The notes beneath the pieces were generated by a model. That model was given only the letters and a program-made list of their open reading frames with translations, had not been told where the DNA came from and made no database searches. A stretch of DNA of 62,082 nucleotides, the filler included, from Circinaria calcarea (taxonomy: Eukaryota), in the NCBI GenBank assembly GCA_051942165.1. It is 12 parts of 12 records of this genome, joined end to end, with 100 filler letters (N's around TTAATTAATTAA, not from the genome) between each part and the next. Parts side by side here need not be neighbours in the genome. Positions count along the whole stretch, not along the records: positions 41,504 to 46,584 come from JAVECS010002058.1; 11 more parts are not named here. One strand, 5' to 3'. The position numbers were made by a program, and so were the translations under genes. Shown piece by piece: positions 11,523-59,900 of the stretch (positions are counted from its first letter, which is position 1; each line of letters opens with the position of its first letter).

Positions 11523-11580
11523 TGGGTTAGGGCCTATGGTTAGGGATTACGGGTGGGGTTAGGGGTTAGGTTTTAAGGGT
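11523..11580 (+). repeat. Degenerate TTAGGG-like interstitial repeat
   Basis: GGGTTAGGG...GGTTAGGGATTACGGG...GGGGTTAGGGGTTAGG. Confidence 0.55.
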
Positions 11581-12566: not shown

Positions 12567-15470
12567 TCAGCCCGAATCGCGGGTGGTTTTCTGTCTTTTT
12601 GCGGGTCTTGGGAGGAGGGGGGGTTGGAGAGTGCTGGGTGCGGACTCTTCTTGTTGTTTCCGCCCTGGGTGTTCATCCTTCGCTCCGTGATCCAGCAATA
12701 TCTGTACCACTGAGTGATGACCTCTTTTCAATGCAGCCTGCAGTGCATTGCCATACTCTCCGCCCTGGGCATTGACCTCCGCTCCGTGATCCAGCAGTAT
12801 TTGCGCCACCGAGTCGCGCCCTTTATATGATGCCGCCTGTAGTGCATTAACATAGAATCCGCCCTCGGCGTTCACCTCCGCTCCATTATTCAGCAGTATT
12901 TGCAACACCGAGCCGTGGCCTGTATATGATGCCGCCTGTAGTGCGTTGCCATATTCTCCGCCTTGAGCATTCACTTTAGCTCCTTTACTCAGCAGTATTT
13001 GCACCACCGAATCGTGCCCTCCTGCTGATGCCGCCTGTAATGCATTGCCAAATTGTCCGCCTTGAGCATTCACTTTAGCTCCTTTTTTTAGTAGTATTTG
13101 CACCACCGAGTCGTAACCTCCCGCTGATGCCGCCTGTAATGCATTGCCATACCGTCCGCCCTGGGCATTCACTTTGGCTCCATTGTTCAGCAGTATTTGC
13201 ACCACCAAATCGTGCCCTCCTAGTGATGCCGCTTGTAATGCATTGCTATACTCTCCGCCCTGAATATTCACTTCCGCTCCCTTTTCCAGCAGTATTTGCA
13301 CCACCGAGTCGTGGCCTCCTAATGATGCCGCTTGAAGTGCATTGCTATACTCTCCGCCCTGAATATTCACTTCCGCTCCCTTTTCCAGCAGCATTTGCAC
13401 CACCGAATCATAACCTCCATATGATGCCGCCTGTAGTGCATTACCATAGGATCCACCCTGGGCATTAACATCTGCTCCGTTTTTCAGCAGCAGTTGCACT
13501 ACTGAATCGTGACCTCTTGCTGATGCCGCCTGTAGTACATTGCCATACCGTCCGCTCTGGGCATTCACCTTCGCTCCGTTACTCAGCAGCATTTGCACCA
13601 CCGAATAATAGCCTGCTAGTGATGCCGCCTGTAATGCATTGCCATACCGTCCGCCCCGGGCATTCACCTTCGCTCCGTTACGCAGCAGCATTTGCACCAT
13701 TGATTCGTGCCCTCTCCATGATGCCGCCTGTAGTGCAGTACCATAATTTCTACTATAATCTTCGCCATGGTCCTGGGCATTGACCTCCGCTCCGTGATTC
13801 AGCAGTATTTGCACCACCGAATCGTAACCTTTATATGATGCCACTTGCAATGCATTGCCATAATATCCGCCCTGAATATTGATCCCGGCTCCGTTATTCA
13901 GCAGAATCTGCACCACCGAGTCGTGACCTAGTTCAGACGCCCAGATAAGTGCCGTTCGTCCTTGTCCATCTTGCGCATCTAAATCTAAATTCTCTGTCCG
14001 GAAAAGTGTTTTAAGGACATCACTATGTCCGTTGAGTGCTGCCAGTCGTATAGCATTCATTTCCGGTCGTCTTATGGATGGGCGAAATGCTCTCCAAAAA
14101 ACTGGAAACCAACGTTGAAATCTTTCAGTGCCCGTATTATACAACTCGCAGACTATATCCATCAGAAGAAAGGTCTTCTGTCCTTGTACACTCCGTACAT
14201 GCGCTGACCAATGTTTAGTAGCGTAATTCCAAAAGGCTTGTATATCGTCCGGGTCATCTGTTTCTTGCAATAGCTCGTTAGAACGAACTTTGTCCCTTGG
14301 TTTCTTAGCTTGAGCTGGCAACTGCTTCAATTTCTTGAGATCCATCCGGGCTAAGTATCCTACACAAATATGTGCCATATACCCCTCAACATCGACGTGG
14401 CTCAAACAATGTTTCCAGCCCTGATTGCTCGATGCAATACCGGCAGTCGAATTTACGAGGAATTCTTTCGCAGTCTGATGAATAAGATATATTCTAGAGT
14501 GATTGATAAATACGAATAAGCCGCACCACTGGGGGAGTTGTTGTTTCAGCCAATTCTTGTCTATACCTAGCTTCACCTCTAACTCAAGTTTTGGTGAGGT
14601 GGCAACCCCAACCGCCACCGCCATTTCCCCAACTGTTAATGGACGACGAGCAGCAACGATAATTTTGAGAATCTTGAATACATTGTCTTTGTTCCTACTT
14701 GCGCCCCTTTTCAGAATTTGTTCGTATGCATCCTCTACTGTGGCTGGTAGTGACTGAATCTCTTCCTCGCTCGGCCGAAAACTGTTTTGAAATGTCTCTT
14801 TGATGCATTCAATGGCTAGGTGAAGCCAAAGATATGTTCGATGCTCCATTGAAAGGAGTTTATTCTTAAGCCGAGCTTTCGCATCTGGCTGTAGAGGGAA
14901 TTTCTTGGCTAGTGTGTTCACTTGCTCTTCGATAACCAGATTGATTTCCCGGTGAATTTGAGCATTCTCATCTTCTCCCTTCAAACGGATCAATGGTAAA
15001 TGCGACACTGTGTCCTCAAACCGACTTTTAATACCCTCATATGGTCGACTCGTGATCAGAAATTTCAGCCAGTGCTGCTTTGGCGCAGTAGAAGATTTAT
15101 CCATGTAAAATTTGGATAACAGTGTGATAAGGCGGTCACGGTCCTGCTCGCGACACTCATCAAGGGCATCTAGCACGCATATGATATTATGTGCCTCTTT
15201 ATCTGTGCCTGCACCTAACATTATCCGCCACAGTTCATCAACCTCCCCCTGCAGCTTATCTTCCGACTTCTCCCACGCTGGTACTGCATGGCGAATCAAT
15301 TGGGGTTGGCTTGTGAATAACTGATGTACCAATGCGCATAGAGCGGTGGCCAGAGAATCCTGCGTTTCGTTGTCTTTGAAAAAGAAGTAGCAGACTGTAA
15401 CTTCCTCATTTTTATGAAGCCATTGTTCGACCAACGAATTTGAAAGCACGGACTTTCCACATCCCGGATC
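12567..15470 (-). CDS. Fungal NLR-like protein: NACHT + ~14 ankyrin repeats, 5'-partial (effector domain off-contig)
   Basis: Walker A DPGCGKS at the contig edge, CYFFFK, Walker B ICVLDALDEC, LITSRP, LIHQTAKEFL, then 33-aa GAxVNAQGGxYGNALQAAS repeats. Confidence 0.93.
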   Translation of the reverse strand, partial: DPGCGKSVLSNSLVEQWLHKNEEVTVCYFFFKDNETQDSLATALCALVHQLFTSQPQLIRHAVPAWEKSEDKLQGEVDELWRIMLGAGTDKEAHNIICVLDALDECREQDRDRLITLLSKFYMDKSSTAPKQHWLKFLITSRPYEGIKSRFEDTVSHLPLIRLKGEDENAQIHREINLVIEEQVNTLAKKFPLQPDAKARLKNKLLSMEHRTYLWLHLAIECIKETFQNSFRPSEEEIQSLPATVEDAYEQILKRGASRNKDNVFKILKIIVAARRPLTVGEMAVAVGVATSPKLELEVKLGIDKNWLKQQLPQWCGLFVFINHSRIYLIHQTAKEFLVNSTAGIASSNQGWKHCLSHVDVEGYMAHICVGYLARMDLKKLKQLPAQAKKPRDKVRSNELLQETDDPDDIQAFWNYATKHWSAHVRSVQGQKTFLLMDIVCELYNTGTERFQRWFPVFWRAFRPSIRRPEMNAIRLAALNGHSDVLKTLFRTENLDLDAQDGQGRTALIWASELGHDSVVQILLNNGAGINIQGGYYGNALQVASYKGYDSVVQILLNHGAEVNAQDHGEDYSRNYGTALQAASWRGHESMVQMLLRNGAKVNARGGRYGNALQAASLAGYYSVVQMLLSNGAKVNAQSGRYGNVLQAASARGHDSVVQLLLKNGADVNAQGGSYGNALQAASYGGYDSVVQMLLEKGAEVNIQGGEYSNALQAASLGGHDSVVQILLEKGAEVNIQGGEYSNALQAASLGGHDLVVQILLNNGAKVNAQGGRYGNALQAASAGGYDSVVQILLKKGAKVNAQGGQFGNALQAASAGGHDSVVQILLSKGAKVNAQGGEYGNALQAASYTGHGSVLQILLNNGAEVNAEGGFYVNALQAASYKGRDSVAQILLDHGAEVNAQGGEYGNALQAALKRGHHSVVQILLDHGAKDEHPGRKQQEESAPSTLQPPLLPRPAKRQKTTRDSG

Positions 15471-15571
15471 NNNNNNNNNNNNNNNNNNNNNNNNNNNNNN
15501 NNNNNNNNNNNNNNTTAATTAATTAANNNNNNNNNNNNNNNNNNNNNNNNNNNNNNNNNNNNNNNNNNNNA

Positions 15572-20659: not shown

Positions 20660-21003
20660 NNNNNNNNNNNNNNNNNNNNNNNNNNNNNNNNNNNNNNNNN
20701 NNNTTAATTAATTAANNNNNNNNNNNNNNNNNNNNNNNNNNNNNNNNNNNNNNNNNNNNCCTGAATACTTACATATCCCCCTCCTGTGTGGCGTATCACA
20801 TACCCTGCATACAGCCAATAAACCCAGACTGCGCAATTATCACGAAAATTTATACGGAAAAGCAGAATCCAAATTATATAGTAGAAATACAGCAATATCC
20901 GTGGGTTTAATAGCATTTACATAGAGGGAATCATTTTATCGAAATTAATTCTCGAAAATTCCCCGCGAGATTCAGAGTTACGCGTAAACAAAGATAGTGT
21001 TTA

Positions 21004-25814: not shown

Positions 25815-25949
25815 GAAAAAAGGGCATACTCCGGGGTTATGTAGTACNNNNNNNNNNNNNNNNNNNNNNNNNNNNNNNNNNNNNNNNNNNNTTAATTAAT
25901 TAANNNNNNNNNNNNNNNNNNNNNNNNNNNNNNNNNNNNNNNNNNNNCC

Positions 25950-30648: not shown

Positions 30649-31157
30649 AAACCCTCTCTCTGTCAGGTGTCTACTCCTTGTGTCCCGGCTACCTCCAGAT
30701 TGCGATGCGCATGGTTGCAGCCGTGGGAATATACACATTGGGCGGTAACCAGCGCTTCCTGCGCGTCGCACGCGGCCATACCCTACCCATCTCTTGCTAC
30801 TCGTTCCGTGGTCGATCAGACTCTATGCTACGGTCTATGGTCAGCCTATGAAAAGTGTCGCATACTGTCACAAGGAGAAGCGGTTGGGGGAAATATTTAC
30901 GGTGGCAGCTTTCACAATCCCAACCCCCTCAAGTGCGTGATTGGTTAAAGGTTACATTCATTACTACGATAATGCAGTATACTCAGGATTAATAGTTTAC
31001 GAGACCTATATTGCGATACGTAAACCAATATACNNNNNNNNNNNNNNNNNNNNNNNNNNNNNNNNNNNNNNNNNNNNTTAATTAATTAANNNNNNNNNNN
31101 NNNNNNNNNNNNNNNNNNNNNNNNNNNNNNNNNATTGATTGCTAAGAATTCGAGCAG

Positions 31158-36219: not shown

Positions 36220-36377
36220 NNNNNNNNNNNNNNNNNNNNNNNNNNNNNNNNNNNNNNNNNNNNTTAATTAATTAANNNNNNNNNNNNNNNNNNNNNNNNN
36301 NNNNNNNNNNNNNNNNNNNGTACCCGAACTGAACATGCGCCCGCCATGACATTATCGGACAGGGATGGGAATTACTC

Positions 36378-41403: not shown

Positions 41404-42659
41404 NNNNNNNNNNNNNNNNNNNNNNNNNNNNNNNNNNNNNNNNNNNNTTAATTAATTAANNNNNNNNNNNNNNNNNNNNNNNNNNNNNNNNNNNNNNNNN
41501 NNNTCCCTGCTCCCCTGTGCTCCCCCGTGCTCCCCTGCTGCTCTCTCGCTGCTCCCTTTTAAAACGGCCTTACTCCCTTTCCACACCGAAAACGGATCAG
41601 GCTCACCCCCATCTCGGGGCATATATAATATATATATATCGGTAGATGCATCACCGAGCTAACCGAATCTTCAAAAATGGAATTGCTAATTATTTTTAAG
41701 AAAACGAAAATACACCGTTTTTATAGTTATCTAAATTAAAAACCTTCTTTTTTATTCCTAAAATTTTCCCCTAACTACCATCCGGATTGATCGGCTTTGC
41801 CGTAGTTTTTTGTTAACTTAATTCCATGCACTTGCGTTGCATGTAATTAAAAATAAAAAATGTACTGTAGCTTCTCCTTGCAGGTAGGATGAGGACACTC
41901 GAAGGGATACTTCTTTTTCAGATATTGATAATGTATCTTCTCTAAATGACGAGAGAATCGAACGTATGTATTGAGAACTCCCGCGTTCTGTCGGCCAAGA
42001 CAGAAAAGGCATGTTGATGGCTTATAATGAAGTGAATAGCGTAAAATAGAGTTTCGTAAACGGTCTTCCGAGAGATATTTGACGGCGAGGGGAAAAGATA
42101 TTTACCCCCGCTCTTCCCGGCGAGAGTATAATTAATTTATATTAGATATAACTATAATGCGTCGCTCAGTCGTATCCTTTATAATAAAAAACGGTTTAAA
42201 GAGAATTCTAGCTAACTGAACACGCTCAGGTAGGGAAGGGGGTGCCTTACGAGAGATTATTATTTAAATATTATCATCATTACTAGAATTATTATTATGG
42301 CTGTTGCCATCGCCGCTGTTGTTATTGCTGTTTTTCTCGTTACTTTTATATTCAAACCATTCCGCGCGTAGTTTGATCTTAGCTAGATTCCTTTGGTTCT
42401 TTATCTCGTTTTTATACGCTCGCACCGCCTTATAAAAGAGTAAAGCCACTTCTGTTCCCTGTTTCTCGGCTTCAGTAATAGAGCCGTAGCGTTTAGTATA
42501 TTCGTTAACCAATTCTAGCCTTATACTGTGTAGTTGAATCACCGCTGGAAGATTAAATATCTTCAAGTGTTATTTTTTAGAGATTTCTTTTGGGGCGCGA
42601 AGGTCTCGAGAACGTATTATATCACCCGCTGTAAATATAACGGATATTCGGTTTTCAAG

Positions 42660-43028
42660 TGTTACGTCCCTAAGCTTCTTAGGCAAAGGCAATGCTAGTC
42701 ACTGGTATAAGGCAGGGGCTCTGTAATATGTACCAAGGTTCTATACCAATCACTTGGCAAGTAATAAGTGACAATAGAAGTACATTGCTACACTTGTAAG
42801 GTCTTGACCACACAGGTCAAATACTACGGAAAGGACTGAGACTATATAGATCTTTCTGAGGTTACACGAACCTTCCCAAAAGGGGTGGACGTAGTGGACG
42901 TCGTGGACGTCGTGGACGTAACGACGTCCAGCACGTCCAGTACGTCCAGTACGTCCAGTACCAACAATACGCCTAGCCCGCGTACTGCTCAGACCTCTTG
43001 GCACAGCCCTGCGAGGTGTGCCATTACA
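42660..43028. mobile_element. Solo LTR (369 bp) inserted in the captain gene
   Basis: TGTTAC...ATTACA termini with perfect 5-bp TSD TCAAG (42655-59 and 43029-33); removing it restores ...NIFLGLENRISV... Confidence 0.9.
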
Positions 43029-43932
43029 TCAAGGCCTAGAAATATGTTCTAGATATCCCATTTCACTATTTATAACCTATACTTTTTATCGAACATCTTT
43101 GGATCTGCATAGCCCATAGCCTGCATTGTAAGAGAATAGGGAGCGTAACCTAAAACAGTTTACGTTAGCATGATTTAAGGCAATAATTTGTCGGTAATAA
43201 GCTGTATCGTTTATAGCGTTGCTAGAGTCTCGTCGAATAAAATAAAAAGGCGGCGCCGTTTTAAATCCATTATTAAGACATATCTGGCGCCAATTAATAC
43301 TTAGAACTGAATATATTTCTAACTAGTTTATAACCACAGTATTCCGGATGCTACGAAGGATGGGTTTAAACTTTATATCTTCCTTCTATTTAAAGACCTT
43401 TCGTTTTGTGCCGTTAGGGATTTTTGCGTTATAGATAACAGCCGCTGTATTATATTTATTATCAAAGGCATTATTTGCGAGAGCGAGTATAATAAAATAA
43501 ATAACTAGATATAATCCTAGACAGCCATTAAATTTTTAGATAATATAAATTATTCTGGAATAATGGTTAGCTGGTGGAATATAGAATACCAGAAAAACGA
43601 ATGAAGAAAGAAAAAAGGATCTTATAATTTATTCTTATCCCGACGCCCTTTCATAAGGTTAAGGGTAATGCGAATAGCGAAAATAAAGATAAGCTCGTAT
43701 TCACTATAAAATAGAACCGCTCCGGTGCCTTTAATTCTTTCGGAATTGCTTTCGGCAAGAGCGCCCGGTCTAGAAGTAATATATCCGAGAAGAAGGATAA
43801 AGAAAACCAGTTGGACTCTTTTTCTTTTTAGGGTATAATGATAGGTGTCGCCGTCCCAGAGATAGGTGATGATGCTTTTTAAATCCGCTGGCGTTATTAT
43901 ATCTACTTCCCTGGCCCTCCCTTCCAGTAATC

Positions 43933-44257
43933 TGTTATAGCGTGCCCGCCATGACATGCACTAGACCCGGTTGGGATAGGATCACGGGTCGGGGGAACTT
44001 CCACCGTAAGGATGTTTAGTGTGCTCATGGTGCTCATAGAGATAAGCGGGGTGAGCAGGGTGAGCAGGATGCTCGGTATGCTCATGGTGCTCGGGAAGGT
44101 GAGCACGGTGAGCAGAGCATTATATATAGCAGGCTATTCCCGCTCTTTAGAATAGCATGCTTATAGACCGTGTTCAATAGACTCCATACTATTGAGTCTA
44201 GGGCAACAGTTCAACTACACCCTATGTAACCGTGCTATCACCAATCGGGACTTAACA
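43933..44257. mobile_element. Solo LTR (325 bp) inserted in the captain gene
   Basis: TGTTA...TAACA termini, near-TSD TAATC/TATTC, internal TATATATAG box; captain coding sequence on both sides. Confidence 0.8.
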
Positions 44258-45115
44258 TATTCCTCATTAGGCCCCAAGGATTGCAGCGCCCTTACATAAT
44301 CTAAACCTTTTTTTTAATATCGTTTTAATGGTTTACCGAAGCTTAGTTATAGATATAAACGGGGATGAATAATTTACTTATCGTAGTCATCTTGGTGGAG
44401 ATTATTGGGTTCATGCTTTTCCCGATCTTATATTTATATACGGTCTGCATTCTGCGAAACCGGTCTATCGCGGTATTAACCCGTTTGATTTGGCTTCCGC
44501 GCAACAGCCATTCTATATATTTAATTAGGAAAGGAGCGGTGCTCTAAGCTAGATATTATCAGTAATCTCTTTAAATAAAGGTATAAAACCTTTCTTATAT
44601 TAGCCGCGATTCACAGGTCCAATAATTTCAGGGACAAGCTTCACTTTTTCTATTTTTCTGTTATTACGATTAACTGGATGCGGGCGACGATAGAGAGATC
44701 ACTTGCCCTATTATCGTTAAGCTCATTAATATCTTTTTTAAGATAGTATTCCGGTCCCAATTCCGATTGAGGTGTTCGGCCATGACGGCTCATGGCTGAT
44801 AAATAGATTCGGGTGAGGTCGAGGAGATGGAGGAAGAATGTATACCGAGGAGAGGTCCGAGGAAGCACAGGTCAAGAAAAAAAATCGTGGGCAGTGCCCT
44901 TCAGCCCGTTTCCGAGCCATTATAGGTATAAGGAGCCAGCAATGGCTGACACCACGCCGGAACCGAATACTATACATCCAGAATTGACAGCGTTGCGGCG
45001 AAAAAAACGGCGACAAAAAGGGCCAGAGAGTTAAAAGCGAATGACGTCGCCGCTTTATTTTTCACTAAACCTGATTCGGACCAACGGGACTCTGATGCGG
45101 TGGATCTAAACACAT

Positions 45116-45151
45116 GGGATGCCCAGTTCTCTTGAGTCTGTGGTCGTATGT
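45116..45151 (-). rRNA. 5S rRNA gene, 5' 36 nt only (disrupted target site)
   Basis: ACATACGACCACAGACTCAAGAGAACTGGGCATCCC matches the Pezizomycotina 5S 5' end; similarity stops where GTCCGCTC should follow. Confidence 0.85.
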
Positions 45152-45174
45152 GATTGAATGTTAGTCAAATTAGA

Positions 45175-45180
45175 TATATA
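45175..45180 (-). promoter_or_regulatory. TATA box at -29..-24 of the 5S gene
   Basis: TATATA lies 29-24 nt upstream of the 5S +1, the position known for dispersed Neurospora 5S genes. Confidence 0.65.
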
Positions 45181-45444
45181 TTCTAATGACAGCACCGCAT
45201 AAGATGTGCAGAGTAACGGACGGGAGAAAATTCTTATGGGATCTACGTAAGAAAGCCACTGATGTTAAAAGGATCATCACAAATTTAGAAGCCTGATCTT
45301 AGGCGATTATTCTTATCGATAGTGTTTCGTTACTCCGTAGTGTCACTAGATTTCCGTCGTGTCAATTTTCTGAAAAGAGAGTGACAATAATGGAGAATGT
45401 GGTCCCAAAATAGTATCATTCCTTGATGGTCCGGCTTGCATAAG

Positions 45445-46584
45445 ATGTCCAGCGTCGGAAGTGATGAATTTGGAGAGGTTGACGAAGAAGATCTGTTACT
45501 GGTAGCTACTCAAGCTGAAAGGCAAGAGAGCGGTCACCCGAGGCAAATACAAGCGGATTCACCAGTATACCGAGCCCGAAAACGCCGTCGCCTCAACGAT
45601 CTTGCGGGTGACCGAGGGCAAGAAGACGATGATGGCTCCATCACCTCGCAAGACGCATCAACATCACCGGCCCAATTAAGAGACGGGGTGGGCAATGGCG
45701 AGGAGGATATTTCCAAGAATAGGCCCAAGTCCCGACACAAGATTCATATACCCAAACAAGCCGACATTCCAAAAGACTCATTTTACACACAACTACCTCG
45801 ATCGTCTCAAAGTCCGTATCGTATTCGTGGGCCGTATTGGCAGAAGCCGAAGTCAAAGTCACCATCTCCCCTGGTGGTTAGAGAGAGTCTACCGCGTTGC
45901 GAGCAGCATGAGGATCAGACGAGGGACTTCTCTGCTAGTCAAAACGCTCTCTTTTACAGTGATGATGAGGCTCTTACAATAAGCCCAAGGCAGCCCGATG
46001 AACGGCAACACAGAGGTTTACCAGATCAAAGCCGCTTCACCCCAAAAGATGTATCCGGCCAGCGAGCTTCCACTCGCCCTCTTGCTACAGCCGACAAAAA
46101 TGCGATTGATGAGCTTGTGGATTTGCCATTGGGAGCGTTCTCGTCGCCAGTGCTCACTAAAGGCAACCCAAACGATGCTATAGAAGTGCCTTCTCAAGAT
46201 GAATATACACAACAATGGCAGTCTCAGGCAACACGACCTCGGAAGCTTGTAGGAGCGCAGGCCAACTTACGACAAACCACATTGTTCGGCGGTGAAGCTC
46301 AGATTGCTGGGTCTCAATCACAGTCAACAAGGCGGCACAACTGGCCCCTTGTAGACCGAGAGGAACCCCCTACTCATCATAAACTCGACAATGATGCTTT
46401 AAAAACATGGGTATATCCTACCAACCTCGGAAGTATTAGGGACTACCAATACAACATCGTCGCCCGAGGTCTCTACCATAATCTCTTGGTCGCTCTACCT
46501 ACGGGACTGGGAAAGACGTTCATTGCAGCAACAATCATGCTGAACTGGTTTCGCTGGACTAGAGATGCACAGATAGTTTTCGTG
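45445..46584 (+). CDS. MPH1: ATP-dependent DNA helicase Mph1/FANCM, 3'-partial
   Basis: [17 protein letters not shown]...[19 protein letters not shown]...[24 protein letters not shown]. Confidence 0.93.
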
Positions 46585-49500
46585 NNNNNNNNNNNNNNNN
46601 NNNNNNNNNNNNNNNNNNNNNNNNNNNNTTAATTAATTAANNNNNNNNNNNNNNNNNNNNNNNNNNNNNNNNNNNNNNNNNNNNGTGAAGGGAGAAGGGC
46701 GATCAGTGGGGACGGACGGAGGTTGATGTCGTACTTCGTTGATTCACAGGTGTTTCTGCCAACGCCTTCTTTGGCAAAAGGCCCAGATCGTGCAAGTTGA
46801 TGATTCTCTGAAGGTTTTCCTGTCCTGGATTCCCAACCCGCTGGTGTGGAGACGTATGATTTTCCGACATGGGCCTCGGATGGTCTTGGGGGCCCGGAGA
46901 TTGTGGAGTGTGATGTTATTAGCTAGTTGTGAAGAGATGGTGACGGACGAAGGCAGTGCGCTGGGCAGTCTCCAAGATACAGTGGTCAAGTAATAAGCAT
47001 ACCCTGCGATGGCAATGTCCACCGCCAATGGAAAAGGCCAGGTCCCCGAGTTGGAATGATTTGAGGACTTGTTACGATTCTAGTGCAAGTGGTCTCCGTT
47101 TTCCCAGCTGTACTCTTGAAGGGGGGGGGGACTAGCGAAGCTCTATGTACAGGAAGTGGTTTGAAGAGCCCACGGCCCCTGCCAGTAATCCGTCCCTAGT
47201 CCTGCGGCAGGCAGTACCGCGCCCCCATGCAACTACAGGGCAGGCCGTCCAGGGCTCAAGGCTTGATGCAGCTTTGCCTACGGCTTGCATGGATTCGGGT
47301 CGCTTGGCTTGCAGTTCGGAAGGATCATGGGTAACGGAGGTATGGTCGACGAGAGGGCAGGTGGCACCAACAGGGAGGGTGGGCTACACAGAAATGGGAC
47401 GAATGGGATGAATGGGATGAATGGGGACGAATGGAACCAATCAGGCGCAGAATTGGAAGGGTAGCGGAAAAGGCAGCAATCGAAGGTCGCATCGACTGGT
47501 GTGAAGCTGACTGTGACGATTGAAACAATTCGCTTCCCCGTCATCCTGTCGGCGACCAAGAGACCGCACACGGAGTAGTATTCTCGTGGTTGCCACGAGG
47601 CCGAAGCACCAACCGCCGTCGACTAGCCCTGCCACTTGCCTCGTAAACGGGGCTTGGACTCTGGACTTTTGGACTCTTTGGACTCCTGGACTCTTGGTCC
47701 CTGGACTGGGCTAGGAATATTAATTAACGCGGCCGGTTGATTAATGTTTCGACGATGGACTCCATCGAAAGGCCGACCGGGGCTAGGAACATTACTGTGG
47801 TCTGGTCGCAGGCATAACAAATGTTAGCCGTCGATTTCATGTGTAACAATTCACTTCGAATCCATACAAAGATCTAGAATAGGCACCGCACACCCTCGCT
47901 ATCATCAAGAATTCCTACGCTTGTATTCCGAGTATGGAAGGGTTTGTCGAAAACCGCGCCAACACATAATGTCATGCCTGCGACCACTGTAGTCCAGAAT
48001 TTCGCGATATCGACGCTCCCAAATTTCCCAGCCTTTTCTTCCACTCCACCGGAAAAACAGACATCCACGAAAAGATCACCTCTTGGACCATCGACGTCAA
48101 AGCATAGAACATGGTGGGATTCTGATTGGCTTACAGGCAATGTTCAGGGACAACGTTTTATGCTAATGATCAATCTACGGAGTGAGCCGCCGCCACCGAT
48201 TTACGGAATGTCAAAGATTCTTTTGGTTCTTCGCCTGCATCGGTCAATAGAATTGAGATTGGGTACTTGACGCAAAGGGCGGTGGGAGATCCCAGCACCG
48301 GGGAAGCAAGATCTGAACCTTCTTCTGGATAAGGTGGCCTCTAGATACATTCCGCTCCAGCCAGAGGGGTTGTTGGGGTTCGTGTGGCTTTAATCGTGTG
48401 GATTTCTGGAGAAGCAGTTGAGAACCCTGCGGCAGCATCTTACCCAAAGGCTACTCTGTAGAATCTACACCCGTAATCGGGAATAGATGAATTTTCACCT
48501 CGGGGGAGTTGCCGCCTGTCAGAGGCATTGTTGACGCAGCAATGATTCCATGATTGGATCAGTCAGTCATCAGTGAGTCCTTTGACAGGGTCCCAAACTG
48601 CATCAATAAATACAACGAACCGTGGCACCCTTGGTCACCCTCTTCATCATAGCTACTTCTGATAGGTCTGGGCTCGGTATCGATTCAGATTTGCCTGGCC
48701 TTATTACCCCTGGCTCGCGGCTCGAGATCCTAAGCGCTTGTCTAACTTGGGCTTAAGGTCCGAGATGGTTACACCCCAAGAACGAATGGTTATCCTTCCT
48801 GAAGAACGCAAGGCTAAGCAACGTCCCAAAAGTCGCATTCCCCGGGACTTTTCTCGTGTTGCCTTGCTACCCGTCCTTCCCGTCCTACCGACACCAGAGG
48901 TCAGCATCCCAAGCAAGAGCAGCGTAGAGAGCACGTCACCGTGTAACACTCCTAAACTTCGACGAAGACGTAGGGCTCCTGGAGGCAACCCCCAACGGCC
49001 ACTGCGCTGTCCGTATAGGCATCCTCTAGTCAAGTTGCAAAAACTGCGCCCGTTGGCACAGCCAGATGAGTCCGGTTCTGGCACTGGCACCGGCATCCAC
49101 GATGCTTTCCGCAGTAAGCTGCACAGGGTCTCGTGGATGACGGCGCGCCGCTATGGATGGCGCAGGACGGGGTGGGTGTCCAACGTCAAAGCAATCAATC
49201 TTGCATTGAGCCAACTTTGCGCCCATCCAGTGTGGTCTCTGCTGATGCATACAGAGTACAGACAGCTCGGGCTAGAGTCCTTTACTAAGGTTACGTGTTA
49301 TACATGGTTAAATACAAGGGTATTTCTTATTTACCTGATTTCCCATCAGCGTTTTATACTTTTTCCGAGTCTTTACCAGAGCACCATGCGCTTAAGCAAG
49401 CACTATCAGCTGTATCATAATTTGTATTTCTGGCACTAAGTGTACCATACCCTGTTAGTAATTAAAGCGGCGTTGTACAAGGACCATGAATGCCACGAAG

Positions 49501-51851
49501 CATTCTAGCCCGAGCTGTAACGTCCCCCTTCTTCGGCCGAACGCAAACGTAAACGAACGACGCTACTAGTAGATTGCTCTGCTCATTCCCATTCGGTAAT
49601 ACTCCCATTTCATGACCACGAGGCTGTCTGAACCTTATTCTGTAATCTTGACGATCTTGTTCATGATTGGTTCAGTAGGTAGACGTATGGATCTGTGCTG
49701 AGATTTATGGGTTTCTTTTGGCAATCGGCGACTGCAGCTCGGAAGAGCAACGAAAAGATTAGATAGACCCGGGAAAATTGCAAAGCGAGTGACCGGTCAA
49801 GCCCAAGTAAGATCCCGTTATTTGCACATCTCTGATAACCTGAGCGCTATCCCACGGCGTCCAAGTGCGAGAGCATGAAGCATATCTGGCAATACAGACG
49901 AACCGCGGTACTGCACAATAATACTTGTATAGGCAAATGAACCGTTATCAGCAACCTTGGAAGTCTCTGTGCATTGTTGTGGTAAAAGTCACATCCAAGG
50001 GGAAGCCTATTTATCATACAACGCCCACAAGTACCTATCGCACTGGATATCGAGAACATCTCAGATAGGAAACCCGGCGTTAGGATATCAAGCCGACTCC
50101 CAATCTCATAGTACCTCGGATCCATCCGAGCGCGGTCATTGCGGTCTTCAGGCAGTGACAGCAAGGCTCGTATCCGAACTTTCGAATGTATATGGGCCTT
50201 CGGTTGGCCTCGATTCTAAATGCTTTACTGTACGCCGAACCTTATCACTATACTATTCCTCAATTCCGGATCATCGCCATGCATGGGCCGAAGGAACCGC
50301 CAACGTGTCTGTCAAGGGTAGTCTTGGTGAGGACATTACTCGAAGACAGGGCGCCTAAAGTGCCACGAATATTCACGAGGAAAGGTGATAGTGGTTGTGC
50401 TTGGATCCTGGACGAAACCCATCAAAGGACGACCGCTATCATCTGTTTCTGTCACTAGCAACGCGTTTCATCAACGCGGCCAAGGGTTCCCTGCTCACCG
50501 ACACCCGTGGCTGTTGGAGCCTTCCTATTCACGCCTTCAACATTACCCTTTCCTTTCTTTTCTCTTGGCCGAGCTCTGAAGGCCAAGTTCCCAGTTCCCC
50601 GACCCAACTTATTAGGGCTCGGGTATTCAACTCTTCAGCTTGCGGACCATTCCGGCACGTATTAAAGACTTTTTTCTTTATGCCTCTTGGAGGTTCAACC
50701 GAAGCCAGACAACGCGGCCTGCAACCAATGTGACAATTGCAACATGGTGAAGCTTGCAGCACTTGGCCTAACGCACACCACCTTCAAGGCTTGCCCAAGA
50801 CCTCCGAAGCTATCACAAATTCACGAGGCAGTTGGCCCGATCGAACCTTCGATTCGCACGTGTCTACAATGACTGGTCCTTGAGCCTAATTTCCCAGCCT
50901 CTCTGGCATATAACACCGAAAATGGTTACAGTCTCATCAGGAACGTTCTCACCATATTCTCATTAAACTGACAAACTATGTTGATGAAAGACTTAATCAC
51001 GTCTGCAATGGGGCCCTCAAATAGCATCCTTGTGCAATAAAAATTCGATATCATCTTGCTCCCAACCGTCCCCTAGTCAGAAAGGTCCCTTCTTCGTTCG
51101 CAACACGACCCAACTACTCTCTACCGAAGCCGAAGACATGACCACAAAAAGCTTGTGATGCTGTTCAAGAAAACAAGTGAGAAAAAAAAGACTATCTGCT
51201 CTGTCCTTCAACCGCATTGCCCCAGGGCCCCTACGATATGGCGAGGATTTAAGCTTTTAAGCATACGTTGCAGTAGCTGTTGGACAGGGGGTGGGTAATT
51301 CACCCATATCCAACTCCGGTTTGTTCTCCGTCGCGTGAATGTTGGATGGACGGGCCAGATGGAGTTGGTCTCGTGCGGCCGGGCGGTTATCAGTAGCGGG
51401 ATTGCTTGGAGTAGCCGCAATAGTTTAGAGTGCCTTGATCTTTTGGTGCTCTATTCCAGCGTTTGAAAACTTTGATTCATATATTACTGTTTGTACTAGG
51501 TCATTCATGTTTACAGCTGCTTCATCAGCTACTGAGTTAGCCCGCCCTTATATATTTCTAGCAGTCCCTTCTCAATCTTATTCTCCCTGGACCTGCTCAT
51601 CTCTTCATCTCTGACCTCATGTTCCGATTTCCAGGAATGGCTACGGTCACAGCCCCCACCAACTCCCTCAAGCCCCTGACCCTATCCTCCATCGCCCCTT
51701 CCAAGAACACTCTCGCGACAACCCAAGCATGAATTCCCCCGGGCTCCTCCTNNNNNNNNNNNNNNNNNNNNNNNNNNNNNNNNNNNNNNNNNNNNTTAAT
51801 TAATTAANNNNNNNNNNNNNNNNNNNNNNNNNNNNNNNNNNNNNNNNNNNN

Positions 51852-52966
51852 GATCGACAAGGGCAAGGGCAGGAGCAACGATGAGTACGGTCACGGTGCA
51901 ATGGCAAACGTGCATGTTCACAAGCTAAGCTTGGTGACCCAAATACAAGATCTATTTCCCGACCTTGGGTCGGGCTTCATTGTGAAGCTACTAGACGAGT
52001 ATAACGACGATCCGGAACAAATGACTGCACATTTACTTGAGGATACCTTACCAGCGCACTTAAAGCAGGCGGACCGAACAGAGAACATGTACGTGCAAAC
52101 CCAAGTTCATCTGAGGTGGCATTGCTTACTGTCACCCTAGCAAAAGTACTCCCAACTACCAAGCAAATGACATCGTGCCTAACCTCGCACCCCGTTCAAC
52201 ACCACCTCTCCTCCCGTCACGCAGAAACATATTCGATAACGATGACTTCGACAATCTTGCAATCTCGCCCACAAAACTCCACTTCGTTCGCCGAGAAAAT
52301 CCAGATCCCCTTACCGATCGCTCCAACGCTCCTAACTCAGCCGCCATCCTCTCCGCCCTCGCTCTCTTCGATTCAGACGACGACGAACGCGACGACACTT
52401 ACGATGTCGGTGACGTGGGCGGAACAGTCGATTCAGCCATCCCTGGAAGCGATGAAGTAGACGCTGATCTGGGAGACAAGAATGAGGAAGCGCTTTTCAG
52501 CGCATACAGGATGACTCCGGAAGTCTTCGAGCGGGATTCCAATACCCGTCGCGGTAAGGCGAGACTGGCACTGAAAAGCGAAACAGGAATGACGGATGAA
52601 GCGCTCGAAGGCTGGGCAATAATGATTGGTCGAGACCCAAGGAGGCTAAGAAGACTAGAAGCCAAATTCTCCACCTTTAGCGGTGGGCAACGAGAACTCG
52701 CATCCACTGCCTATCGAGAAGGCGGTGTGGAATCCGGGACTGAAGACTCCGAGGGGGGAGCAAGGGGTGGAAGAGGGGGCTTCAGGAGTAGAGGAAGGAG
52801 TCGAGGACGAGGAGGCGGGAGAGGTGGAAACGTAGCCGGTCCGAGTGATGACAAGGGCGTGCAGATTGCGCGGCAGAGGAAGGATGCGAGTAAAGGCTCG
52901 AGAGCGAATCATAACCGGCGGGACCAGAGAGCGAAGAAGGTGGCCAGAGCTGGGTTGATGGGATAG
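51852..52966 (+). CDS. CUE3: CUE-domain protein (Cue3/Rqt3/ASCC2-like), 5'-partial; intron ~52089-52140
   Basis: CUE motif QIQDLFPDLGSGFIVKLL, RRNIFDND, DDERDDTYD, C-terminal KGSRANHNRRDQRAKK. Confidence 0.82.
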
Positions 52967-53220
52967 AGAGGTGGTCGAGAAGTATGCTACTCTCTCCGTT
53001 GAGACTAAGAAAGAGCCCTTCTGCTCCGCGTCGAGTTTATGTTTAAGTAAGCGGCGTATGCCGCGCCCCAGCAGTGGCAGTTGAACTCTTGTCTCTGCCA
53101 TGAACATGGCATGACCATAAACTGTCGCGGAAAATTTCGCGCACTCCACCACCTCCCCCCATCCCTATGCTCGATTCCTGTTTCTATTCCTTTAACTGTA
53201 CTCTCACTTTCTCCCTCCTT

Positions 53221-53350
53221 TTCTCAATGTCTTTTTTCCTCTATCAATGTCTCCCTCTCTTTCTCGGTGTCTTCCTTCCTTTCTCAGTGTCTCCCTCCCT
53301 TTCTTAATGTCTTCCTCTCTTCCTCAGTATCTCCCTTCCTTTCTTAATTC
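53221..53350. repeat. 20-bp pyrimidine-rich minisatellite, ~6.5 copies
   Basis: TTCTCARTGTCTYCYTYYCT-like units at exact 20-bp spacing (53221, 53241 ... 53341). Confidence 0.85.
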
Positions 53351-53624
53351 CTTTTTCCTTTCCTCTCTTCCTCTCCTCCTCCCCTTGTAAAGGTGAGGCA
53401 AGAGTATCGGGAAATAGGGATGTAGAGGAAATAAGAGAAAATGAGGTAAGATGGCGTGGATCAGCCACCGCAGGCTCGTGCTAAAGACTTGGGAAGGGGG
53501 AAGCAACGGCGGCGGATGAGTGTGGGTAAGGAAGGGGAGGGGTTTCCATTCTATTATATTATATTAACGGGGAGAGATTTGACGGGGGTGGAATGAAAGG
53601 ATAAGTTAGCTCGCGAGCGCGGGG

Positions 53625-53955
53625 ATAGCCGGTATTAAAATGATAGGCGCTTCTTCAGGTTTATCTCTTTTCTTTTTTGCGATCTCGGCAAGGCTTAGGC
53701 GGAGCGCTACAGCGAGTAGCCGTAAGACGGTAATTCATTAATACAGCCTATTAATAATATACTCCCAAGAATTCAATCGGATACCCGCCCAGAAAGTCAA
53801 ATATTCATCGTTTAGGATAGTGGTAAATTCTTATGGTACGGCTATCGTAGCTAGTGCTTTGGCCTACCATACCATAACCCTTGCGGAGATGGCCCAAAAA
53901 AAAAAAAGTAAAAGAAGAAACCTGAAAAAGCGCCTATCATTTTAACACCAGCTGT
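53625..53955. mobile_element. Two inverted (tail-to-tail) copies of the family-2 Helitron-like terminus: 53625-53741 (+) and 53820-53955 (-)
   Basis: Outer 38 bp match 34/38 as an inverted repeat, all differences transitions; both share TACGGCTA, CCTTGC(G/C)GAGAT and AAGCGCCTAYCATTT with 21004-21098. Confidence 0.6.
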
Positions 53956-54017
53956 ATGAATTTTCACACCCCAAAAAGCAGTCTCTTCCCCCTCCCCCCC
54001 CCCGGCAAAAACCAAAA

Positions 54018-54103
54018 ACATGAAACAGCCGGGTATTCGCTGGTGGTCACCCACCCGACTGCAGAAGCGGATCGGGGTGCCCAGGACCCTCGGTCGGTCA
54101 TGT
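54018..54103 (-). pseudogene. 5S rRNA-derived sequence with internal deletion
   Basis: 3' part AGTCGGGTGGGTGACCACCAGCGAATACCCGGCTGTTTCATGT plus T-runs is close to the fungal 5S 3' end; 5' part ACATGA...GACC...CTGGGCACCCCGATCCGCTTCTGC is a diverged 5S 5' half. Confidence 0.8.
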
Positions 54104-54567
54104 CTTTGAGCTGCCTCCGGATGATTCCCAACAGTCGAACACACCACCCTTGAAAATTAACGTCAACTATTGAATCACGCAAATGGGCATGTTCCATATC
54201 TTGATACCCAATACCTCGTACGCCCATGTGCTCACGTATGGGGTCGTACATACCCCCCTAGGGCGCCCGTGGCCCGCCCCCCCTTGCATTCCAGGGTGCA
54301 CAAAGAGAAAGGGAATGAAGAAAGGGAATGAGGAAAGGGCCCAGAGAAAGGGCCAAAGAATATTACCGTCGGTAAACAAGGGCATTTATGAGGGACTTTT
54401 TTCCTACCTGTCTGATGGGCTGCAAACGGACAAATTGCCCTTTTGGCCATCTTCGGATGGTGGTGATATTCGTCTTTGTTAAACAGAGGGTCAAATGAAG
54501 GTATATAACCACTCATTCGTGTTCACCCGACAGCGACTAACCTAGCAAATCTTTTCCCGTTTCCAAC

Positions 54568-55632
54568 ATGGTTTACAAAGAGATGGAACCCCCAATCGGG
54601 CAGTCTATTGGCCTTATCAAGCCTGGCTTTTGGAGCATCGGTACCCTCATGTCATGCGAGCAGCTTCAAGGTCAACCGCCGGAAGATGCAGTGGCTCATT
54701 GGAAGGATGGTGATACTGCGTTTTGCCTCCGGCCAAAGTTGCCCAATACTTCCTCTACCGGTGATTCAGCAATTGGCAAGTTCTATGACCGCGGCACTTG
54801 CTCTGCAGCTTGGAATTTAAGTTCGAATGTCATCTGCAAGGCCACAAGCTGGGTCCAAGGGATGGAAGCCGAAGGAAAGACAATCGAATTCGTGGTGAAG
54901 CACGTCCCATCCGTACCCGTTCCCGAGGTTATTTATCATTGGGTTGATCCCGCCTGGGACAGATCCTTTATTCTCGAGAGACGAGTTCCAGGCGAGCGGT
55001 TAAATGAGGTCTGGTCTCGAATTTCTCACGAACAACGCGTGGGCGTAGCCGCTCAGCTCGCGGAACATGCAGTCAGCCTGGCCAAGTTGAAATCACGCCG
55101 GTGCGAGAAAGCCACCGGTGCTGGCATTACCTATGAATCGACCTTGCTTGGCGGAGTTCCTTGGGAAGATAGGCCGTCGTGGAAGCCTCTTCTCCACACA
55201 CCTCTCACCGCCGGGCAAGTCACGGCGCGGATTGTGAACTTTTCAGGCGAGGCGCCTCCGGATCTTGGGGAGTATTTCCTATTTGCCCACACGACCATGA
55301 ACCCTACGAATGTTTTTATAATTATGCCGGCGGAGGAGACTGGGCACGTACAAGTCAGTGCGATCCTCGGCTGGGCAAGTGCCGGGTTTTATCCGCATTG
55401 GTGGATTAGTACTACACCTCGGGTACATGCAGGTTTTGCCTTGGATACTGAATTCATCGACGATCCACCTCAAGATCAATGGGACTGGATGTGGATCCTA
55501 TCGGATGCGCTCATTCGAAAAGGATTTCCTTGTGAGGATAAGTGGTTCATGCAAAACATGTTTGATAAGGAGAAAATTGCCGCAGAGCAAGAGGCTCGTG
55601 AACAGCGAGAGGCTCGCGCAGAGCAAGAGTGA
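54568..55632 (+). CDS. Aminoglycoside-phosphotransferase/choline-kinase-like (APH-fold) protein, probable pseudokinase
   Basis: ICKATSW...EGKTIEFV...VPVPEVIYHW...RVPGERLNEVW and SAGFYPHWWI; Brenner motif reads HTTMNPTN and the DWE motif reads GWA. Confidence 0.82.
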   Translation: MVYKEMEPPIGQSIGLIKPGFWSIGTLMSCEQLQGQPPEDAVAHWKDGDTAFCLRPKLPNTSSTGDSAIGKFYDRGTCSAAWNLSSNVICKATSWVQGMEAEGKTIEFVVKHVPSVPVPEVIYHWVDPAWDRSFILERRVPGERLNEVWSRISHEQRVGVAAQLAEHAVSLAKLKSRRCEKATGAGITYESTLLGGVPWEDRPSWKPLLHTPLTAGQVTARIVNFSGEAPPDLGEYFLFAHTTMNPTNVFIIMPAEETGHVQVSAILGWASAGFYPHWWISTTPRVHAGFALDTEFIDDPPQDQWDWMWILSDALIRKGFPCEDKWFMQNMFDKEKIAAEQEAREQREARAEQE

Positions 55633-56805
55633 GTTGGATAGGATAACTATGGGTTGTCATTGCTTAATGTGCATCCTGCTCCGCCGCTTGATTTCCTTCC
55701 GGCCTTTCTCAACCGCCTTTTCTCCTCGGATCTCCACTCTCAAATTCCCGGTTCTTTCCTTCTGTTTTTGCTCGTTTGCTTTCGCTCCGCTCGTTTTCCG
55801 CGTTCGTGCTTTCTCACGTCGTCTGCATCCTCTGTTCCTTTAACGCCCCTTGTCTCAATTCCGGCCAATGGCCGACCGGCAGCTGGCTCGACGGCGTGAT
55901 GCAGAGATGAAGATAAGAAGTACCCGCTTGCAACGTTCGCATATCGGCTTTTTGACAGTTGTATTCTGAATGATGTTGTTGTAATTGCATTGTGGGCATT
56001 TTAGCATTTTGAGTTTTTGCTGAGGGCTGCTTAGAAGACTCGATATAGATACTCTTGTCACTGAAACTTAGAAAACGTAGATTGGGCCTAGATGCGAAAT
56101 GTAATAGTTGAGAGGATTGAGGGAGTGTGTTGAGAGCGGATGAGTATTTACATGTCCGGGGGGCGATCTATATATAATATCCTTCGAACCGTGCCAAAAC
56201 ACCACAGGATCCACCTTGGAGATTTTCTCCCCTGCAAAATTCAAAACACGACAAAGCAGCCCACGGAATAATAATTGCCCCAAAGAGTGGAACGAACCTG
56301 AAGGATTCGGCATTCTCAAGGACGCCCTGTTTTGTAGGAGTTTTGAAGAAACAGAAACATGTCCAAATGTCCCCCAAAGACCCAAAGAAAGAAAAGTAAG
56401 ACCGAAACGCAAAACAAAGGAACAACATCCCGGCAGCGCCCCCCCAAAAAAAAACAAGGGACGGAGCGGCCCCCATACACTCGAGGTCGAGGACCTCAAA
56501 CAAAGAGATTTGTGCGAAAAGGGGGAAGGGTGGAGAGGAGGGACCGACTTGCCGCTTTTCCCCAACAGCGAATGGGAAAGGTGGTGGTGGCCGTTTTATC
56601 CGTTTCTTTAAAAAATCTATTATATCTTGTGTAGGGTCAGGCCAAAAAGATGATGTTTAATTTCTCTCCTGATAAAATATATAGATTATTCCCCCCCCCT
56701 TTGTCCCTTGTGATGAAGGATGCCTACCAAAAACCCCCCTAATTCTCCTCCTCCTCCCCGGCCAACAGAATATTAAAAACCCCCCAGGATCCCCCGCATC
56801 CGTAT

Positions 56806-56911
56806 CTATTAAATCCCATCCATCCATCCATCCGGTCTGTCCGTCCGTCCGTCCGTACAGCTCATCCCATCCCCCATCAGACCGGATGGATGGATGGATG
56901 GGATTTAATAG
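56806..56911. repeat. Perfect 34-bp inverted repeat with 38-bp spacer containing (GTCC)n
   Basis: CTATTAAATCCCATCCATCCATCCATCCGGTCTG (56806-39) and its exact reverse complement (56878-911). Confidence 0.92.
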
Positions 56912-59900
56912 CTGTCTCNNNNNNNNNNNNNNNNNNNNNNNNNNNNNNNNNNNNNNNNNNNNTTAATTAATTAANNNNNNNNNNNNNNNNNNNNNNNNNN
57001 NNNNNNNNNNNNNNNNNNCCCACCGGCCCCCTTCTTCTAAAATACAACTCAAACAACCAAAAAAAAGGAGGAAGAAGGGAAAGGCAAAAGAAAATAAGAA
57101 CGAGAACGAGAGGGGGAAGGGGATAAAGGTGCTGAGAATAACGTGTGGGGGCTTTAATACATGTTGGTGCTGGTGATGATGATGATGATGAAATTGGTGA
57201 ATGGGTTATTAAAGGAGTTGTGGGGTAGGTGGAAGATGCACTGAAATTACTAATTTTTTTAAAAAAAAATTCATTTAAAAAAAGGGGGAAAGGGCTGGTT
57301 TCGGTTGGGTTCGGTTGGTGGTGGGAATGTATCCCGGGAGGGGTGGCAAGGATAGGATGTACGAGGGCAGAGAAGGGGATGAAATGGAGTTAAAGTAAGT
57401 CGAGATTGGAAAAATCCAAACGGAAGCGAAAATGAAAGCGGGAAGAATGGTGTCTGTGGTGACGGGGTAGATTGGTATTTGGGGTATGGGGGGAGGGGAT
57501 AAGGATAGCGAGAATCAAATGGGGTTTCTTATGATTAGTTTGATATCCTTGCTTGAAAACCCGAGATCCAGTAGGTATCGAAATAGGAGAGTGAAGGAAA
57601 GTTTGGTAAAGGGTACTGAATCAACGATTTGGGCTGGAAGGGGGTGGAGGAAGGGTAGCGGGAAGCTTTATGGGTAGGGTGCGACGAGAAAAAAAGAAGA
57701 GGGAAGGGAAAGCCGGCGTAGGGTAGTGGAAACATTTTCAGTTGTGGACGTAAATTGACAATTAATGTCTGTTTCGTCTGCCTTTGCGATTTCCAGAAAA
57801 CCGCAAACATTCTACCTTATCCCCACAGCCCACAAGCCACACATGCCTGAAAGCTGCAGTCTCATTAATATAAACCCAGCTCACACCTAGACAAAACAGC
57901 AGCACCGACCTACTGATACAGAGTATATCATAATCCACTTACCCCTTCCATTCCTCTATTTCCTGGACGCCCTTGTTCAACCGCACTCAGGTCCAAACTG
58001 TGTTGAGCAAGCTGCTGGCTTCAGGTTCATTGCCAGTATATCGCTCATCCCATATCGCTTTCCCAGGAGTGTGAGCTATATTCAAGTGAGCAGCGGGCAA
58101 GTTGTCAGAGCAAAGAGACCTTAACCAAGGCGATTTCCGGCTGTGACAGTTAGTAGCTTTACGAAACGGAATCCAGCGATAGGCCTTGGCCGGTACGACT
58201 GGTAGCCCATGGTTGTATTCTTTCTCCGACGTGGAACGGCTACCTCGCAGCGGTAAGGCAAGTAGTAAGATGCCTCAGGCACTTACTCCCTCATATAGGG
58301 CATAAAGTTGTCGTATTTCCCATGTTTCGTAGGTGATAAAAAGTGGGATACCGAGATGAATACCATATTGGGTATTCTATTTCAGCATAGGGGGCTACCA
58401 GCTCATATCCATATCCTTGTCTCAATATTCAAGGACAATGCAAGAGAACTGGGATTCAACCATTCTATCAATTTGCACCGAAAGGCTGCGCCGCATATAC
58501 ATGCAGGTTTTGCCTTGAGGTTTAACTACCATGCGAGAGAACTCTCGATTGAGAATTGGATACGGAGTATTTGCAAGGGAAATGTGATGTTTATTTGGAA
58601 ATATAAAGTGAAATGGTAAGTTGAGAAAGTGAACTATGATATGTTTCGTTTTGATGTTGAACTATTAATCGAAACTATCCTTGGCCGAGCTTTTTTGGTT
58701 AAGAAACATAGGGTTAAGGTATAGATTGGAAGGCCGCTAACACATGGTCTTAGTATCCACCTTGAGTGAAAGGTCAACGATGCCTAAGAGAACCTCAGTT
58801 AAGCACTGAAATGTGATGTTAGGCATGGTCTTTAGCTCGTCGAACGATGGTGTAAAAGACAGTCTGCCATGGGAAAGGAAACCCCATGAGTTGTGTAAGG
58901 ACACCTTTACTAAATCAACACTACCGATAGCACACAAGAACCCATAATAGCATACGGCCATTGCGATCAGGACAGTAGCAAGGACATCCGCTGCAGCGTG
59001 AGCCATGTTCAACTGATTTTGAAACAGTTCAGCTGTAAGATTTCCAAGCGTATATTCGGGTTTCTGTCCGGAAAGTCGCTAAGGTATTGTTGATTCAAGT
59101 CAGTCAAAGCGAAGGGGAGGTGTCGTGGTTATCCATGCTGTCTCAGGTTGCGGAGCAGTACTTCAGCACGAGCAAAGCCTGAAGAACGCGGTGAGCTGCA
59201 TATAAATCGAGATCCAACTTGGAACCGTGCTGACCAACTCGGACGGAGCTTGTTTCGGAAGCAAGAGAGACACTTTGGCGGCAGAACTGGCGGAGATTCT
59301 CCTTAACCATACAGCTCTCGTGCCCAGTGCACTACAGTGTACCTACTCGGCTTCGAGCATGAAGCAGAGGGCTCGCAGGATGATATTGCAGGCGTCAACC
59401 TGCCCATACGCGAAGAGCCATTGCCGCTGCACCCCAGACATACTGCATATGCCGCATGCAGCGTAGTGCAGTGAGCTAGATACTTGGCTGTCCAATCAGA
59501 CTAGTTTAACGAATACGAGATTGAATTGCCATGAGCTGAACAAAGACCATGATGAGGCAAGAGATCGGAGATCTAAACGATCGGGGGTGCAGATGCTCGG
59601 CGAATGAGGAGAACAGCAGCACGAGGACTGTTCGAGAGAGCTTGCAGAGTGGTATTGCACAAATGCAAGGTACCTCCTCATTTAGTGGGTCCCGCAGTAG
59701 CCGGAAAGGAGAGATCATCACAACGAAAAGTGTACGGGTCAACAGAACTTACCTTGTTGATGGTAACAGCGGTAGAGTAGATACGGGAAGAGATAAGTCA
59801 AGGGAAACTATCTGCCTGGAAGTCGTCTCCACGAGGTAGACATGCGGCCACAAGCCACAAGCAGAGAAGGTTGAATGGAGGCTTCATATGGCCTTCCATG

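Follow-up and report, generated by a model that had tools for sequence, protein, structure and literature searches.

Starship elements that are led by a DUF3435 tyrosine-recombinase captain and target 5S ribosomal DNA have been described in print, as an earlier note on this DNA had stated, and 5S rDNA accounts for 23% of the 222 curated Starship insertion sites; at least five distinct 5S target sites have been inferred (PMC11162782). For the Arwing family, insertion at a CCCG/GGGC core is reported in both directions, and Fusarium Starships are tabulated with the direct repeats CCCGTC and TCCCGTC (PMC11162782, Tables S1 and S7). The Voyager insertion of Macrophomina phaseolina lies 20 bp from the 5S start (PMC9156397), and in Aspergillus fumigatus 5S genes are broken up by the Osiris elements (PMC12153272). 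The tabulated element most pertinent to the locus described here is laspus2_s07456, a Lasallia pustulata Starship of about 65 kb (76156-141422), whose captain, laspus2_tyr7798, starts 557 bp from the boundary and whose direct repeat is cggacgggatgcccagt (PMC11162782, Tables S3, S4, S7 and S9). This captain belongs to a 90/80 cluster (representative umbpus1_tyr10627) together with KAA6414651.1 and SLM37746.1, both entered in the starfish tables as Starship tyrosine recombinases; the family labels given to the cluster conflict (fam08 three times, clade01 once and clade02 once). The same source records RIP in a Starship of a lichen fungus, the Letharia lupina element labelled "Ripped" in the starfish benchmark table.

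We analysed a window of 62,082 nucleotides of Circinaria calcarea DNA, which consists of 12 pieces of 5064-5092 bp each, split by 11 linkers that share the structure N44, TTAATTAATTAA, N44 between all adjacent pieces (5093-5192, 10282-10381, 15471-15570, 20660-20759, 25848-25947, 31034-31133, 36220-36319, 41404-41503, 46585-46684, 51752-51851 and 56919-57018). The pieces are separate contigs, and features on different pieces are therefore not genomic neighbours. The locus of interest occupies a single contig of 5081 bases (41504-46584, JAVECS010002058.1), the low- and high-coordinate ends of which are marked by the unstranded linkers at 41404-41503 and 46585-46684; the remainder of any element would lie off this contig, as the earlier note had proposed. 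Two further genes were seen on other pieces. A NACHT/NPHP3_N and ankyrin-repeat (NLR-like) gene at 12570-15470 (minus strand, piece 10382-15470) runs into a linker, and its contig is not linkable to the 5S and captain locus; NLR genes are frequent Starship passengers. An open reading frame with an Ulp1 protease C48 domain (E = 2.6e-13) at 4549-5092 (minus strand, piece 1-5092) reaches its contig end; C48-type domains are present in some transposons.

The host side of the locus is formed by the N-terminal 386 codons of an MPH1-like 3'-5' DNA helicase (45427-46584, plus strand; Pfam ResIII), which runs off the contig end. This open reading frame has 2053 homologues at E<=0.001, the best of them 87% identical, whereas the best named homologues, about 50% identical, are 3'-5' DNA helicases of lichen-forming Lecanoromycetes; some of the matches are named MPH1. 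The MPH1 host flank of the earlier note is thus supported, as a conserved MPH1-like gene. About 280 bp from this gene, and in divergent orientation, starts a 5S rRNA gene fragment (45116-45151, minus strand), which comprises bases 1-36 and ends in ...GGGCATCCC.

To place this fragment among genuine 5S genes, we searched metagenome contigs with a degenerate pattern derived from the 36-mer (27 bases fixed), which yielded at least 122 matches in at least 121 loci. Among the matches listed, nine loci are identical to the window 36-mer at 35 of their first 36 bases, the sole mismatch being a change of G18 to C that is private to the window copy and absent from all 122 copies listed; the exact window 36-mer had no match in the metagenome contigs. 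Eight of these nine loci continue as a complete 5S gene, and the ninth, L100, breaks after about base 60. Alignment of the fragment to 5S with blastn covered 36/36 bases at 97% identity (E = 3.8e-13), and an nhmmer profile built from 29 distinct full-length 5S genes of the metagenome loci matched 45151-45106 (E = 3.2e-7), with real identity stopping at base 36. Direct reading of the minus strand places a TATATA at 45175-45180, that is, at -29 to -24 relative to the 5S start. Such a position is typical of 5S genes, because 48 of the 110 distinct 5S upstream regions in the loci listed have a TATA between -40 and -16, most often at -28 and -30 (the modes), where shuffled sequences give 20.6 such regions. 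Judged by sequence, the 36-base match and its typical upstream TATA identify 45116-45151 as the start of a genuine 5S gene, 36 bases long and still attached to the upstream region that belongs to it, in agreement with the initial description of a TATATA at -29 followed by 36 nucleotides of 5S and then unrelated sequence. The 5S internal control region lies further 3' than the bases retained, and the remaining piece is thus presumably dead.

The covariance model gave a different outcome. RF00001 found no match at 45116-45151, an outcome that, taken literally, the earlier note had named as refuting its reading; nothing was detected at gathering scores or at E<=10 over the whole window, nor in stretches of 501, 51 and 36 bases around the fragment searched each alone. 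We interpret this silence as blindness of Rfam to such short pieces, because truncated control copies were missed as well: when 12 metagenome loci were given to Rfam, the six full-length ones scored 64-75 bits over model positions 1-120 and the six truncated ones scored nothing. The fragment, with 36 of 120 bases, does not reach the gathering score, and in-register identity from base 1 is present. Rfam silence was consequently discarded as a refutation of 5S identity.

The same control loci indicate how often 5S genes are interrupted. Among the matches listed, the 36-mer gives way to non-5S sequence in 13 loci, most of which are cut after base 41 and continue into mutually related sequence. 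None of the five broken-5S loci with 3 kb of downstream sequence carries a DUF3435 gene, and 5S genes that are broken yet have no captain close by are common. The loci cut after base 41 (...CATCCCGTCCG; L051, L040, L045, L060, L070, L093, L095, L108, L109, L110, L114 and L028) break where the direct repeat of the Lasallia Starship ends. DUF3435 was found in none of the four that have 3 kb of downstream sequence (L051, L040, L060 and L070), as the Lasallia arrangement would predict, because there the 5' half of the 5S gene appears to abut the captain-distal end. In the read-through translation of L051, a similar short peptide recurs several times downstream, which suggests repeated units. In a different 5S variant, that of L001 (match on the minus strand, 3001-3036), similarity likewise ends directly behind CATCCC(G), where the window copy breaks, and the 3 kb downstream of it are free of DUF3435. 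We rejected the other truncated 5S loci as parallels, since neither a captain nor a homologue of the sequence beyond the window break occurs in the 121 loci listed; that sequence likewise has no homologue in the other 11 window pieces.

At the break itself, the sequence from 45115 onward (minus strand, ATGTGTTTAGATCC...) is unrelated to 5S, with only scattered bases alike. After the CCC the window reads ATG, not GTC, and the 5S match is extendable to base 38 (CCCGT) if one CpG transition is allowed at base 37; because base 37 may have undergone this transition, the crossover is fixed to bases 36-38 and no closer. A non-5S leader (44794-45115, minus strand), presumed to be the 5' terminus of the element, separates the break from the start codon of the recombinase. 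The element boundary must fall within the 630 bases 45426-44793, because these are flanked by the conserved host gene and by the captain ATG, and the 5S break is the obvious discontinuity within this interval. Within the leader, beginning 27 bases past the break, the minus strand holds TCCCGT (45089-45084), TG and then GTCCGAATCA (45081-45072). TCCCGT and GTCCGAATCA resemble 5S bases 33-41 as well as the junction in the loci cut after base 41, and may reflect chance or a target-like subterminal site.

No 3' part of a 5S gene that fits the break, starting near GTCCGCTC, was found within the window. A degenerate 5S pseudogene at 54018-54104 (minus strand, piece 51852-56918) matches the nhmmer profile at 54062-54018 (E = 4.2e-6); it aligns with bases 1-119 apart from small indels and the internal loss of 30 bases (48-77), has 25-26 identical bases at 54031-54056 and is followed by a T-run. 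We rejected the match at 54062-54018 as the missing 3' half, since it lies on another contig and aligns from 5S base 1.

Beyond the leader, 41778-44793 (minus strand) contains a DUF3435 tyrosine-recombinase pseudogene of the Starship captain type, detected with Pfam, phmmer and tblastn. Minus-strand translations that read through stops (written as X) match PF11917 with E = 5.4e-15 (profile positions 254-413) and, a second time, with E = 0.0026 (positions 3-108). Queried with the 451 C-terminal codons of the captain, phmmer retrieved 51 proteins at E<=1e-3 from among 1.84 billion representatives, the best of which, P0122, is 70% identical (E = 3.2e-131). DUF3435 is present in all 12 matches tested, and the second-best cluster includes the named L. 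pustulata proteins SLM37746.1 and KAA6414651.1. Residues 68-678 of KAA6414651.1 (P0174, 684 residues) align by tblastn with 44555-41778 in five segments (residues 68-120 with 44555-44397, 151-247 with 43885-43628, 258-367 with 43529-43200, 368-404 with 43144-43034 and 411-678 with 42641-41778), at an identity of only 29-38% per segment. These five homologous segments are interrupted by ten in-frame stops, and the gene is not an open, active captain; frame changes between segments were not counted as frameshifts, because they could be introns. Word-based protein searches returned nothing, whether the query was the read-through captain or, to find longer relatives, P0122, and loci encoding captain relatives were found neither in viral contigs nor in prokaryote genomes.

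Two longer gaps in the captain alignment, of about 370 and 420 bases, contain 9-base tandem repeats. The repeats, at 42885-42971 and 44009-44115 (minus strand), are accompanied by a 28-base inverted repeat within the captain. Both repeat-bearing stretches are without counterpart in the Lasallia protein or in P0122 and may be introns or in-frame expansions.

The captain has the same orientation as the 5S fragment and points away from the break, so that the first gene at one end encodes a DUF3435 tyrosine recombinase and is transcribed inward, as in Starships. The first homologous segment shares its frame with the ATG at 44783 and not with the one at 44793, and extrapolation from residue 68 places the start near 44756. 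The captain N-terminus aligned with the Lasallia protein with a score of 28, not significantly above the shuffles (mean 24.9, sd 4.7); this match was rejected as proof of the start codon because it is no better than shuffles. We therefore give the start as either 44783 or 44793, 322-332 bp from the break. The original claim of a DUF3435 gene about 320 bp from the break holds for the gene and its orientation; the ATG at 44793 that it had chosen is the out-of-frame one.

The recombinase gene bears the marks of repeat-induced decay. In the alignment with P0122, 87 of 293 positions are mismatched; C>T/G>A changes alone explain 61 of these 87 mismatches and the reverse direction explains 13. The 294-residue C-terminal segment has five stops, four of which are Q codons changed to TAA. 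The contig has a raised TpA/ApT of 0.99 (0.68-0.84 in the other 11 pieces) and a lowered (CpA+TpG)/(ApC+GpT) of 1.02 (1.14-1.30 in the other 11 pieces), and this combination of directional C>T/G>A change with both index shifts is a RIP footprint. Because of the mutation bias, the stops and the shifted indices, we classify the captain as a RIP-like pseudogene, and since its recombinase is now a pseudogene this copy is unable to move itself. RIP-like composition is confined to 13 windows of 300 bp within 41654-44503, and the host side and the leader are normal, with a leader TpA/ApT of 0.76 (44804-45103). The leader would thus lie outside the repeated unit on which RIP acted, in which case that unit would begin near the ATG rather than at the break, or else it is a short stretch with little RIP substrate. 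This normal composition mildly weakens the case for an element start exactly at 45115.

We conclude that the locus is probably the captain-proximal junction of a Starship-type element that was inserted into a dispersed 5S gene and is now inactive. The 5S gene that was hit would have stood head-to-head with the MPH1-like helicase gene in a lichen-type fungus, a lecanoromycete. Recombination by a DUF3435 tyrosine recombinase would have placed the element in the stretch formed by GGGCATCCC and the following G, at 5S bases 36-38 (helix III/loop C), so that the host side kept 5S bases 1-36 together with the upstream TATA. The recombinase gene would later have been struck by RIP-like C>T/G>A mutation and turned into a pseudogene, and the cargo would lie on other contigs. 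The break falls inside the Lasallia repeat, the Fusarium repeats and the CCCG/GGGC core documented in PMC11162782, which, as far as sequence can tell, argues for an integration junction. The base rate of such an association is low, because tblastn found no DUF3435 in the flanks of the 121 other 5S loci listed (347,780 bases) or in the other 11 window pieces. The RIP-like decay, also in favour of this reading, is limited to the captain part of the contig. Counting against an integration junction are the silence of Rfam, the non-RIP leader, the sense orientation of the captain, its identity of 29-38% to the Lasallia protein, and the fact that truncated 5S genes without a captain are common. Of the earlier proposal that 45115/45116 is the left junction, a junction on the captain side remains the best explanation; the exact boundary is less firm, the 5S match reaching possibly to base 38.

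It is unlikely, in our view, that the break is a true integration junction of a solo or stranded captain, a recombinase-bearing remnant left for instance by cargo deletion, with no giant element elsewhere. The restriction of RIP-like mutation to the captain would suit such a remnant, as would the contig end at 41504, only 274 bp beyond the last aligned captain codon, and predicted recombinases greatly outnumber bounded elements, with 10,771 given in the title of Table S3 and 587 element rows in Table S9 (PMC11162782). However, short-read assembly ends contigs after RIP-affected repeats for any repeated element, and because such contigs end just after repeats the absence of visible cargo is uninformative.

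We consider it quite improbable that an unrelated 3' truncation of the 5S gene and a DUF3435 gene came to be neighbours by chance, the real boundary lying elsewhere in 44794-45115. Truncated or degenerate 5S genes are indeed frequent, as illustrated by the 13 loci listed, by L100 with its break at about base 60 and by 54104-54018, and the leader differs in composition from the captain. Yet coincidence would have to place the break in the CCCG core and inside documented Starship repeats, one of which belongs to an element with a related captain, and would have to reproduce the captain spacing and outward-to-inward orientation of elements catalogued in PMC11162782. It would also have to do so although DUF3435 is near none of the 121 other 5S loci listed.

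An assembly chimera, in which the 36 bases held in common led to the MPH1-side flank of one 5S copy being connected with the Starship junction of a second copy, is suggested by the fragmentation of the assembly into contigs of about 5 kb and by the dispersed, repeated nature of 5S genes, but is very improbable, given that usual final assembly k-mers are longer than 36 bases and that the 36-mer carries the private G18C absent from the 122 other copies listed, and it would alter only which 5S locus is occupied, leaving the junction between 5S and captain unaffected.

Taking the break as the putative captain-side junction of a 5S-integrated Starship, we compared the locus with the described elements. 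Like the families named Enterprise, Arwing and Voyager as presented in the sources cited above, it would combine a DUF3435 captain as first gene with site-specific entry into a dispersed 5S gene that is thereby fragmented. The CCCG/GGGC core of the Arwing family includes the window break, whereas Voyager is inserted 20 bp from the 5S start and the window break is at base 36. The Fusarium repeats equal, in sequence, 5S bases 33/34-39 and overlap the window break at CCC/G; they have GTC after CCC, in contrast to the ATG of the window.

The resemblance to laspus2_s07456, as documented in the tables of PMC11162782, extends further. The captain cluster of this element includes the nearest named relative of the window captain, its captain likewise starts at a distance of some hundred bp (557 bp from the boundary, compared with 322-332 bp from the break in the window), and its host is also a lecanoromycete. 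Reverse-complemented, its direct repeat cggacgggatgcccagt equals bases 25-41 of 5S in the metagenome loci, and this stretch contains the window break point. The two differ in that 5S identity extends to base 41 in the Lasallia element and to base 36, or 38 at most, in the window, and in that the window copy is a pseudogene, whose identity of 29-38% per segment to KAA6414651.1 is partly lowered by RIP-like decay. They differ, moreover, in orientation, the Lasallia captain being antisense to 5S and the window captain sense. The window locus therefore does not display the Lasallia-type combination of a repeat over bases 25-41 with an antisense captain.

This difference in orientation raises the possibility, which we put forward tentatively and regard as somewhat doubtful, that one near-palindromic 5S core, GGGCATCCC (bases 28-36), serves two related captains in opposite orientations. 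Were this so, a clade of lichen-fungus captains would recognise a symmetric core and integrate either way round, and in sense copies the start codon of the captain would come some 350 bp after the TATA of the host 5S gene, and this TATA could then act as a captured promoter.

Targeting of 5S genes, this particular 5S stretch and the CCCG core are all already in print (PMC11162782). The locus would accordingly be one more, inactive, example of Starship integration into 5S rDNA, from a lecanoromycete poorly sampled for such elements. Set beside the entries of PMC11162782, its only unusual feature is a captain that is sense to 5S, as opposed to antisense in the nearest catalogued relative at the same core, and its value is that of a catalogue entry and of a minor contribution to the record of how target sites are oriented in a single captain clade.
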